Shown here: one piece after another, positions 43,435 through 44,830 of the stretch
Numbering within the stretch: the first letter of the stretch is position 1
How the letters are laid out: every line of letters starts with the position of its first letter
Origin: Alphaproteobacteria bacterium
GTDB lineage: Bacteria; Pseudomonadota; Alphaproteobacteria; Bin95
Assembly (NCBI GenBank): GCA_022827685.1
Contig: JAJEIH010000047.1
Location: 16,536 to 80,535, forward strand
DNA: 64,000 nt
Direction: 5' to 3'
Position numbers and translations under genes: made by a program
Notes under the pieces: model-generated
Told to the model about the DNA's origin: nothing
The model's database searches: none
The model's input: the letters and a program-made list of their open reading frames with translations, nothing else

Positions 43435-43579
43435 GCTGCCCGTGCAGCGCTCAATGCCAATGGTGTCGCCCACCGGTTCCAACTCCCGCAGGCCGTTGAC
43501 CGACCGCACTATAGCCTATCCGCGCGGCAGGATGCCAAAACCGCAGCGTTGGGGCGTGTCCCGCTCGCTATGGTTCGCG

Positions 43580-43710
43580 TGACAGAAGCGGACCGGACAT
43601 GTCCGGGGACAGCACGCTTGCACCGAATGGCGTCGCGATCCCGCCCGCATCACCGAGTGTATTGGCCGCGGCATTGAAGAATGCGGCGGGCACCCACCCT
43701 TGAGCCGCAT
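43580..43710 (-). pseudogene. C-terminal fragment of a CoxL/XdhA-family molybdopterin enzyme
   Basis: The minus-strand translation ...VPAAFFNAAANTLGDAGGIATPFGASVLSPDMSGPLLSREP* resembles the conserved C-terminus of CoxL-family large subunits. Compare the intact neighbour, which ends AVPAPAAVFNAVDDALGG.... There is no upstream coding continuation. Confidence 0.4.
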
Positions 43711-43741
43711 TGCGCGCCTCTCGGGAAGCTCCTTACAAGTC

Positions 43742-44263
43742 TCAATCCTGACCCCAGGAAACCGGACGTTCTATTCGGCCCAGTCTGACAAGACGGCTTC
43801 GTATGGCGCCGTTCGTTCGCTCGTGGCTGGCGGCAAGCTCCTTGATCGTGGCACCTAAGTCGAAGGCTTGCGCCAGCCGCTCGTCCTCTTCGGGCTTCCA
43901 TGTTTCTCCGTTTCGATTCGGACCTTCGTTTTCTATTCGCCCCAGCTTTGCAAGACGTCGTTGTATGTCGCTGGACGTCCGCCCGTGGCTGGCGGCAAGT
44001 TCCTCGATTGTGACGCCTGAGTCGAAGGCTTGCGCCAGCCGCTTGCCCTCATCAACCGTCCACCTTTGTCTGTCTCGGGACTGCTTGCGATTCTCACGGT
44101 CGGTTCCTGCGACGCGGTGGCGGAATACAGTCACCGCGTGCCCCAACGCTCGTATGACATCGGGTTGCTGGATGACAGAGGTGCGAGGCAACACTTCCCC
44201 GGTTTCCGGATCGACGCCTTGAGCTAATGAGTTCAGGATATTTAGAGTCCGGTCATCCTCCAT
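43742..44263 (-). CDS. Hypothetical protein with two tandem Myb/SANT-like HTH repeats; low-GC codon usage
   Basis: About 173 aa from MEDDRTLNILNS.... The protein repeats are WTVDEGKRLAQAFDSGVTIEELAASHGRTSSDIQRRLAKLGRIE and WKPEEDERLAQAFDLGATIKELAASHERTNGAIRSRLVRLGRIE (pattern W-x-x-E-E/D...L...G-RT...I..RL). The gene is about 55% GC. Confidence 0.6.
   Translation of the reverse strand: MEDDRTLNILNSLAQGVDPETGEVLPRTSVIQQPDVIRALGHAVTVFRHRVAGTDRENRKQSRDRQRWTVDEGKRLAQAFDSGVTIEELAASHGRTSSDIQRRLAKLGRIENEGPNRNGETWKPEEDERLAQAFDLGATIKELAASHERTNGAIRSRLVRLGRIERPVSWGQD
43771..44063. repeat. Tandem direct repeat, 2 x about 160 bp (about 80% identity), inside the Myb-like gene
   Basis: Unit 1 (43771-43900) and unit 2 (43931-44063) share long identical runs (cgtggctggcggcaag...gtcgaaggcttgcgccagccgc). 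Confidence 0.6.
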
Positions 44264-44357
44264 GAACGAACGCCTCAGCCTCTCGCCGGAATATCCAGGA
44301 TACAGCATATGGCAGCAGTATTGGAGGAGATGAGCCACCTCCGCGCCCGCCAGCTCA

Positions 44358-44455
44358 GGCGTAGTCGATCTTCGCGGTCTCGTAGTAACGCGCGCCGCCC
44401 GGGGCATCGACCTCAATCTGGTCGCCGACCGACTTGGCGATCATCGCGCGGGCCA
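44358..44455 (-). pseudogene. 3'-terminal fragment of a greA paralog/copy (about 100 bp, about 87% identical to the real greA 3' end at 47110-47210)
   Basis: It encodes ...[32 protein letters not shown] against real GreA ...[32 protein letters not shown]. Homology begins at the stop codon and ends abruptly where the acyl-CoA dehydrogenase fragment begins. Confidence 0.7.
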
Positions 44456-44690
44456 TCGGCAAGGCGTGCGGGCCGCAGGCCAATGCCGCGACATACCTGG
44501 CGGCGGAGGTGGGCCACGAGGCCTGCGAACGAGCCATCCTGACCCGTGGCGGCAGGCTACGCCAAGGAGTAGCATGTGGAGCGCTGGTTCAGGGAGATCT
44601 GGATCGCCCGGATCGTGCCCGTAAGCTGACAGCTCGCGCTCTCCTTTATCACCGAGAAGGAGCTGGACCTGCCGAAGAACTACTGAGGCG
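44456..44690 (+). pseudogene. 3'-terminal fragment of an acyl-CoA dehydrogenase copy (about 88% identical to the 3' end of the intact gene at 56589-56830; inverted relative to it)
   Basis: It encodes ACGPQANAATYLAAEVGHEACERAILTRGG, then after a 2-nt deletion ...VERWFREIWIARIVP..LALSFITEKELDLPKNY*, against the real ...EACGPQANAAKYLAAEVGHEACERAILTHGGMGYAKEYHVERWLREIWIARIAPVSWQLALSFIAEKELDLPKSY*. Confidence 0.7.
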
Positions 44691-44724
44691 CCCCAGCCCT
44701 CTTCCCCTCGTGTCCCGGCGCATG

Positions 44725-44830
44725 ACCGCGATTGCTGCGGTTCCTGCGGAGGCGGCGGACGGGAGACCGGCACGCCTTGCGATGCCGGAGGAAAGCGCGC
44801 CGCCTCGCCGAGCGCCTCGCCGGCCGCCGG
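44725..44830 (+). pseudogene. Degenerate 3'-terminal fragment of an SDR gene (resembles 42590-42690 of the intact SDR)
   Basis: Shared DNA blocks are ggcacgcc, gccggaggaaagcgcgc and tcgccgagcgcctc, giving about 75% identity over about 100 bp with one 10-bp indel. Confidence 0.45.

Follow-up and report, generated by a model that had tools for sequence, protein, structure and literature searches.

Contig JAJEIH010000047.1 of an Alphaproteobacteria bacterium (assembly GCA_022827685.1, GTDB lineage Bin95) carries a patch of gene fragments between two convergent genes, one encoding an SDR protein and the other a CoxL-like molybdopterin subunit. We analysed the patch within the 64,000-nt stretch from positions 16,536 to 80,535 of the contig (the window, to which all coordinates refer unless another locus is named). 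The fragments come from four genes, SDR, CoxL, greA and an acyl-CoA dehydrogenase (ACAD) gene, and are marked here by a prime. In all likelihood the patch is scar tissue without function, left by illegitimate recombination at a hotspot for cargo between CoxL and SDR. The features of the locus and the intact counterparts of the fragments are as follows.

42050-42721, plus strand: intact SDR gene, the left flank of the insertion (Pfam adh_short 1.8e-33; stop codon TGA at 42719-42721)
42722-44826: insertion of 2.1 kb, as compared with the empty site of the relative L087; the patch is part of it
42757-43509, minus strand: intact Uma2-family cargo gene, 250 aa (Pfam Uma2 3.9e-14; PADLOC PDC-S17 4.6e-15)
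43510-44830: patch with gene fragments
~43589-43695, minus strand: CoxL', a strongly decayed remnant just downstream of the HTH gene
43742-44263, minus strand: intact cargo gene for a helix-turn-helix (HTH) protein, Myb/sigma-r4-like, 173 aa (PHROG 323, 'transcriptional regulator, D5-like', 1.1e-14)
44353-44465, minus strand: greA', the last 36 codons of greA and the stop codon
44458-44725, plus strand: ACAD', the last 76 codons of ACAD, the stop codon and ~40 nt of spacer
~44733-44833, plus strand: SDR', joined to the CoxL stop codon (repeat families D2 and D4)
44831-47104, minus strand: intact CoxL-like gene, the right flank (Pfam MoCoBD_1, MoCoBD_2, Ald_Xan_dh_C)
47110-47592, minus strand: greA, intact counterpart of greA' (Pfam GreA_GreB_N, GreA_GreB)
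56589-57758, minus strand: ACAD, intact counterpart of ACAD' (Pfam Acyl-CoA_dh_N, Acyl-CoA_dh_M, Acyl-CoA_dh_1)

Read in the direction of greA, the order is greA, CoxL, then SDR', ACAD', greA', HTH, CoxL' and Uma2 as the interposed block, and finally the convergent SDR gene. Counted in nucleotides from the respective stop codons, SDR' covers -43 to -169 and ACAD' +40 to -235, both in antisense, greA' covers -113 to the stop and CoxL' -118 to -12. A preliminary description of the patch had reported the four fragments and their intact counterparts in the window, and had omitted the intact HTH gene that lies among them. All four fragments are real: greA' and ACAD' are strong matches, SDR' and CoxL' weaker yet significant ones. 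In a blastn comparison of 43400-45000 against the window, greA' matches 47108-47220 on the same strand with 88.5% identity over 113 nt (E 1e-36), and 44458-44690 of ACAD' matches 56819-56585 in inverted orientation with 88.5% identity over 235 nt (E 3e-83). The 2-nt deletion described earlier in ACAD' is present and shifts the reading frame, and the piece has two in-frame stop codons besides. It continues for ~40 nt into the native spacer between ACAD and rpoD, as far as the first arm of the terminator hairpin in that spacer, where SDR' follows. An open reading frame (ORF) of 60 aa (44355-44537, minus strand) begins in antisense ACAD' and runs into greA'. The annotations of relatives list it as a gene with a weak GreA_GreB match, and it is almost certainly a pseudogene artefact.

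SDR' is the best remaining non-self match of the region, and its target is the very gene at the flank of the insertion, with the orientation as expected. An exact 17-mer and an exact 14-mer are common to the piece and the SDR gene, with a 12-nt deletion between them, and the local alignment score is 92 against a null maximum of 73. The piece adjoins the CoxL stop codon and is oriented exactly as SDR is in the compact allele greA-CoxL-SDR found in L087, with the joint at CC(A/G)GTC and 55 nt missing relative to that allele. CoxL' is weak when compared within the window (41% over 29 aa, E 0.39) and has no Pfam match. When tiles of 43500-43760 were scored, however, the 3' end of CoxL in the right orientation gave the best score in four of four loci, namely the window and the relatives L088, L003 and L089. 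The L088 score of 37 compares with 17 as the highest null value, at ~68% identity in an alignment of 107 nt. By tblastx the piece gives E 7e-4. The earlier statement that every piece is the extreme 3' end of a gene, through the stop codon, therefore fits greA' and ACAD' and fails for the other two, SDR' ending 43 nt and CoxL' ~12 nt short of the stop. The 3'-end pattern is only half true, and geometry accounts for most of it: the hotspot lies between convergent genes, so that flanks dragged along or displaced there are 3' ends.

The junctions between the pieces fall at GC-rich microhomologies of 4-8 nt. The greA'/ACAD' joint connects two internal points on opposite strands, and its overlap is GGCGA(G/A)GC at 44458-44465; the gcgggcc previously taken for the microhomology of this joint is instead a 7-nt direct repeat on either side of it. 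On its other side, greA' is contiguous with the region upstream of the HTH gene, both in the window and in a second lineage, L002. ACAD' is bracketed, exactly at its two junctions, by an inverted repeat with a left arm at 44453-44472, CATCG(G)CAAGGCGTGC(G/C)GG, and a right arm at 44767-44785 that match at 17 of 19 nt; a score this high is reached by ~0.4% of random tiles only. The right arm partly replaces expected SDR sequence, as a quasi-palindrome templated mutation would.

Relatives place the patch within a larger insertion. L087 is the closest relative recovered (its CoxL is 94% identical to that of the window), and its identity to the window is 97.1% over 57104-44826 and 96.1% over 42721-33804. 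Its homology ends exactly at 42721, at the SDR stop codon, and only ~11 nt separate the two L087 homology blocks. In this empty site the SDR and CoxL stop codons are convergent with a spacer of 16 nt. Because both flanks match L087 and only a spacer lies between them there, 42722-44826 is an insertion relative to L087. The interval between CoxL and SDR exists in five different alleles (L087, L088, L003, L089 and the window), so that the same flanks hold alternative cargo in different strains, as defines a cargo hotspot or minimal mobile element: it is empty in L087, has two small ORFs in L088 and three metabolic genes in L003, and in L089 the three metabolic genes of L003 together with an insertion sequence (IS) and Uma2. 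The adjacency of Uma2 and SDR is common to L089 and the window, with 89.5% identity over 43596-42227, which is ordinary interspecies divergence, and the insertion is therefore composite. A search of genome contigs with GreA gave one close relative, L003, and 79 other loci, none above 71% identity, that told nothing about the hotspot, and an exact GreA look-up gave no match. Among plasmid and phage collections we found distant ACAD homologues only, or no match, and thus no source for the pieces.

The pieces are old. ACAD' is 84-90% identical to every orthologue, the orthologues being 89-97% identical to each other, and for greA' the corresponding values are 88.5-91.7% and 93.5-99%. Substitutions specific to the pieces are spread evenly over the three codon positions (4, 5 and 8 in ACAD'; 1, 5 and 3, nine in all, in greA') and alter residues that are invariant in all orthologues, of which there are seven for greA. 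Differences that are shared with some orthologue are, in turn, almost all at third positions. Unbiased substitutions, stop codons and the frameshift together mark old, neutrally decaying pseudogene pieces. They have decayed neutrally by ~6-8% from a source near the clade consensus. At four-fold sites of carB the window diverges from L087 by 3.9% and from other species by 27-29%, and set against this scale the pieces are clearly older than the split of the window and L087 lineages and younger than the species splits.

The flanks of the insertion are mosaic. Against a background of 97-100%, identity between the window and L087 drops to 81-97% over RidA and SDR (41692-42721; 81-92% in 41692-41990). 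This drop fits an imported tract that ends there, and either the window or L087 could be the recombinant. On the other side, in the final 600 nt of CoxL (44831-45430), identity is down to 85-92%. In this tract L087 is 95-97% identical to L089, and L087 is therefore itself recombinant. The mosaic flanks show frequent recombination between lineages around the hotspot.

The window lineage is known only from metagenome assemblies, and the related L002 was found in the same run series, so that a chimeric assembly of co-occurring related strains had to be considered. We give it hardly any credence. Five contigs from five samples (L091-L095), found through the window's own HTH protein and coming from two pipelines (ENA scaffolds and Logan contigs), span all junctions and agree with the window at 99.2-100% identity from 45059 to 43198 and further. 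As every junction is reproduced in five samples, the patch is not an assembly chimera, and the 4-8-nt overlaps at its joints are far below any assembler k-mer. The earlier judgement that the pieces are old and not an artefact of assembly is thus borne out by both their neutral decay and these contigs. Anatomy, empty site, alternative alleles, microhomologies, neutral decay and reproducibility are matters of direct observation.

From these observations we infer an order of events, a donor allele and an enzymology. We lean towards the most economical history, in which two cargo alleles gave rise to the window allele as a hybrid, through a single homologous crossover and a single illegitimate joint, with ACAD' as filler, much as in homology-facilitated illegitimate recombination (HFIR). 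In one lineage the HTH gene would have replaced most of CoxL, giving the order greA-HTH-CoxL'-Uma2-SDR. DNA of this HTH-bearing allele would then have recombined into a genome with the compact allele. On the SDR/RidA side the crossover would have been homologous, the incoming SDR end keeping SDR intact. The other incoming end, broken in greA 113 nt from its stop codon, would have been joined illegitimately into the resident SDR ~169 nt from its stop, at short GC-rich microhomologies and with capture of a 275-nt ACAD fragment as filler. CoxL' would accordingly be a relic of the replacement of CoxL, greA' the truncated incoming end and SDR' the displaced resident end, and the remnants would be 3' ends because the hotspot is flanked by convergent genes. 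The two overlaps, GGCGA(G/A)GC and CC(A/G)GTC, are of the short (3-10 nt) GC-rich kind that characterizes the illegitimate joints of HFIR. L002, 83% identical over HTH, has the last 30 nt of greA without the decay of the window piece, followed by the same upstream region, HTH, 153 nt and a convergent SDR end; it has neither Uma2 nor CoxL'. This arrangement suggests that some lineage has, or once had, HTH directly after greA as a genuine gene order. A pattern scan of metagenomes for the junction of a greA end with HTH gave 0 matches.

Several points weigh against this history. The donor allele, with an intact greA ahead of HTH, CoxL', Uma2 and SDR, was not recovered in any genome, L002 having the last 30 nt of greA only and neither CoxL' nor Uma2. 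Two illegitimate junctions and a later deletion of 55 nt are required. Simple end-joining leaves the inverted repeat around ACAD' unexplained. The decay of 6-8% compares with ~2% per branch since the window and L087 parted, which puts the event before this split and requires that the empty allele either survived or was imported again. Finally, since L087 carries an imported, L089-like 3' tract of CoxL, the insertion could have been either gained or lost. Three other arrangements were considered and rejected. CoxL as recent cargo in the 3' end of greA is at odds with the greA-CoxL order kept in all close relatives. A simple inversion between greA and ACAD would produce the observed geometry of the joint, yet neither gene would survive it, and the sequence after ACAD' is not rpoD. 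For a donor in which CoxL converges on ACAD, no such genome was found, and ACAD' carries the standard ACAD/rpoD spacer.

The most serious competitor, which we still regard as unlikely, dispenses with foreign DNA. A break or collapsed replication fork between CoxL and the cargo would have been repaired by template switching, as in microhomology-mediated break-induced replication (MMBIR) or fork stalling and template switching (FoSTeS), or by end-joining with filler, using greA 2.6 kb, ACAD 12 kb and SDR 2 kb away, after which the copies decayed in place. All source genes do lie within 15 kb, the pieces are short, of mixed orientation and joined at microhomologies, and their neutral decay fits an age gained in situ. 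An inverted repeat that brackets ACAD' is also something that template switching can yield, and capture of fragments at breaks through non-homologous end joining (NHEJ) is known in an alphaproteobacterium (PMC6379672). Three observations are less easily accommodated. The contiguity of greA' with HTH recurs in L002, 17% diverged and with an undecayed greA end, and is easier to understand if greA-HTH was once a genuine order; SDR' lies exactly where the compact allele has its SDR end and so looks like a displaced original rather than a copy; and 12 third-position sites of ACAD' match other species, not the ACAD of the window itself.

Of the mechanisms floated in the preliminary description, scars of illegitimate recombination are the best fit of the three, given the 4-8-nt microhomologies and the edge of an insertion that is missing in a 97%-identical relative. 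The remaining two were leftovers of integrative elements directed at gene 3' ends and a sampling of transcript 3' ends. Site-specific elements, whether integrase islands or integrase-less, cis-mobilisable ones helped in trans, might bring in a replacement 3' end and leave partial copies resembling attL and attR attachment sites at the 3' ends of protein genes. Cargo is flanked by direct repeats of 3' ends in three or four cases (greA/greA', CoxL/CoxL', ACAD/ACAD' in the relatives L084-L086 and gcvPB/gcvPB' in L090), and these repeats, of 113-236 nt and 86-93% identity, resemble the icd duplication, which is made by phage 21 and e14. We nevertheless find such elements highly improbable here. 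Pfam scans of the ~55 major ORFs of the 64-kb window gave no tyrosine or serine recombinase and no integrase, reverse transcriptase, phage or gene transfer agent (GTA) gene, and in or near the islets of the window, L084-L086 and L090 there is no integrase, excisionase or transposase save unrelated IS remnants. Five genes (greA, CoxL, SDR, ACAD and gcvPB) are affected rather than a single target, the greA and CoxL repeats are interleaved, not nested, and the longest identical run of greA and greA' is ~20 nt, with no defined core and hence nothing like identical attachment sites. The internal-to-internal greA'/ACAD' joint on opposite strands is a further obstacle, and it also speaks against the capture of transcript 3' ends by a template-switching reverse transcriptase. 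Such retro-copies would account for two pieces that pass the stop codon by a few to 40 nt, as the 3' end of an mRNA would. With pieces on mixed strands, SDR' and CoxL' short of the 3' end, greA' continuing into the intergenic DNA upstream of HTH that is common to L002, and no reverse transcriptase gene in the window, this origin is scarcely tenable.

Remnants of the same type are found elsewhere in the clade. The arrangement of intact gene, cargo, 3' remnant and native neighbour recurs at ACAD in L003 and L084-L086 and at gcvPB in the close relative L090. At ACAD, the gene is followed by a Calx-beta protein gene of 1500-1765 aa, with IS630 in some, a 47-codon ACAD remnant and rpoD; this is a single shared event, and the islet is missing in the window, L087 and L088. 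The remnants and their loci are as follows.

L003, 870-1010: ACAD-remnant insertion locus
L084, 10001-10234: ACAD-remnant insertion locus
L085, 10001-10135: ACAD-remnant insertion locus
L086, 11902-12036: ACAD-remnant insertion locus

In L090 the last 236 nt of gcvPB are repeated at 86% identity (8865-9100 and 10360-10590), and the islet between the copies holds a PhdYeFM/PIN toxin-antitoxin pair and a 121-aa homologue of the HTH protein. Short diverged repeats number 7 in 0.25 Mb of the clade and 7 in 1.36 Mb of other Alphaproteobacteria, a comparison biased by the choice of loci, several of the clade loci having been selected through their remnants, and the excess is suggestive only. It seems doubtful to us that this sparsely sampled clade possesses some general mechanism, independent of integrases, by which cargo enters core genes at their 3' ends and the gene is regenerated. 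One candidate route would be for genomic fragments to circularise and integrate in Campbell fashion, another a recombinase acting in trans that has so far escaped recognition. If such a process existed, triplets of gene, cargo and 3' remnant would be expected at many loci; so far they concern greA, CoxL, SDR, ACAD and gcvPB. The recurrence at these five genes is the one thread that could lead to something new.

The locus has likenesses to several known systems and is identical to none. HFIR with GC-rich microhomologies of 3-10 nt has been described in natural transformation of Acinetobacter baylyi, Streptococcus pneumoniae and Pseudomonas stutzeri (PMC6382021). It combines one homologous anchor with one illegitimate joint, as proposed here, and thereby introduces DNA that lacks a homologue at the target site; the 4-8-nt overlaps of the window fit, but the laboratory cases are single events, usually with a deletion in the recipient, whereas in the window a recipient gene end is duplicated and filler lies in the joint. 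The conserved CoxL and SDR flanks, the five cargo sets and the mosaic recombination tracts recall the minimal mobile elements of Neisseria and flexible genomic islets. Classical exchange of cargo by two homologous crossovers in the flanks leaves no gene fragments, however, and the window has an illegitimate joint and four fragments left behind. In integrase islands and prophages, such as islands at tRNA and tmRNA genes, phage 21 and e14 in icd, and ICESt1/CIME in fda, the intact gene and a displaced partial copy of its 3' end likewise form direct repeats around the cargo; the window differs in its lack of an integrase and of an identical core, in its many targets and in the interleaving of its repeats. 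NHEJ captures DNA fragments at double-strand breaks in Sinorhizobium meliloti (PMC6379672), and this process, like filler DNA or template switching by MMBIR, places short fragments from elsewhere in a joint, in either orientation and with small end deletions. An intact SDR would not result from end-joining alone, however; this calls for a homologous junction as well.

Both intact cargo genes are ordinary accessory genes: the HTH protein resembles phage regulators, and Uma2 matches a candidate defence family. The HTH gene has a GC content of 58-60%, compared with 68% for the window, and contains an internal tandem duplication of its DNA-binding repeat (43769-43915 and 43931-44077, 78% identity, 162-nt period). 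The same duplication is found in the HTH gene of L002, the 183 homologues being mostly single-repeat proteins of 112-145 aa. As a marker of islets that duplicate gene 3' ends the HTH family was rejected, a repeat being present near HTH in only 2 of 43 informative metagenome loci. The Uma2 product is a putative restriction-endonuclease-like (nuclease-like) protein from a cluster of 18 members. A second Uma2-family gene, at 15622-16551, has 72% nucleotide identity to the one in the insertion.

Beyond the insertion, Pfam matches on nearly all long ORFs are to housekeeping and metabolic genes, plus one IS630-like remnant, and the order of greA followed by CoxL is kept in every close relative. Scans for tRNA genes and Rfam families found 0 of either in the window, and promoter, Rfam and tRNA scans of the patch gave nothing relevant. 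The neighbouring genes are as follows.

40492-41679, plus strand: thiolase
41676-42065, plus strand: RidA
47616-56529, mixed strands: carB, carA, yqeY, dnaG and rpoD

The IS630-like remnant (39509-40409) is an ORF with only the HTH domain of a transposase; it is present in the window, L087 and L089 and absent in L003 and L088. A repeat of ~133 nt occurs at 8585-8717 and 10632-10764, in the gaps on both sides of a 2-hydroxyacid dehydrogenase gene, with 91% identity between the copies. A third copy (85-88%) lies in L089 (15592-15712), beside an IS (DDE_Tnp_1) in the CoxL/SDR hotspot, and the repeat may be an IS end or an element resembling a miniature inverted-repeat transposable element (MITE). 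At 23819-25846 a 675-aa ORF joins an N-terminal GPP34 (Golgi phosphoprotein 3-like) domain to a cytochrome P450 domain, an unusual fusion.

In conclusion, the phenomenon is ordinary in kind, consisting of pseudogene scars of islet turnover and not of a new genetic system, and the locus documents one-sided illegitimate recombination in nature with unusual completeness. The scars have a practical side, as gene callers annotate them as small ORFs: the 60-aa 'GreA-like' product here and the 'ACAD' ORFs of 44-104 aa in relatives are pseudogene pieces. Natural and datable cases of one-sided illegitimate recombination are rare, the process having been studied mostly in laboratory transformation assays. 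With its joints, displaced ends, filler, empty site and alternative alleles preserved together, the locus could be a case study of the entry and turnover of small accessory islets between convergent core genes in the absence of mobile-element machinery.

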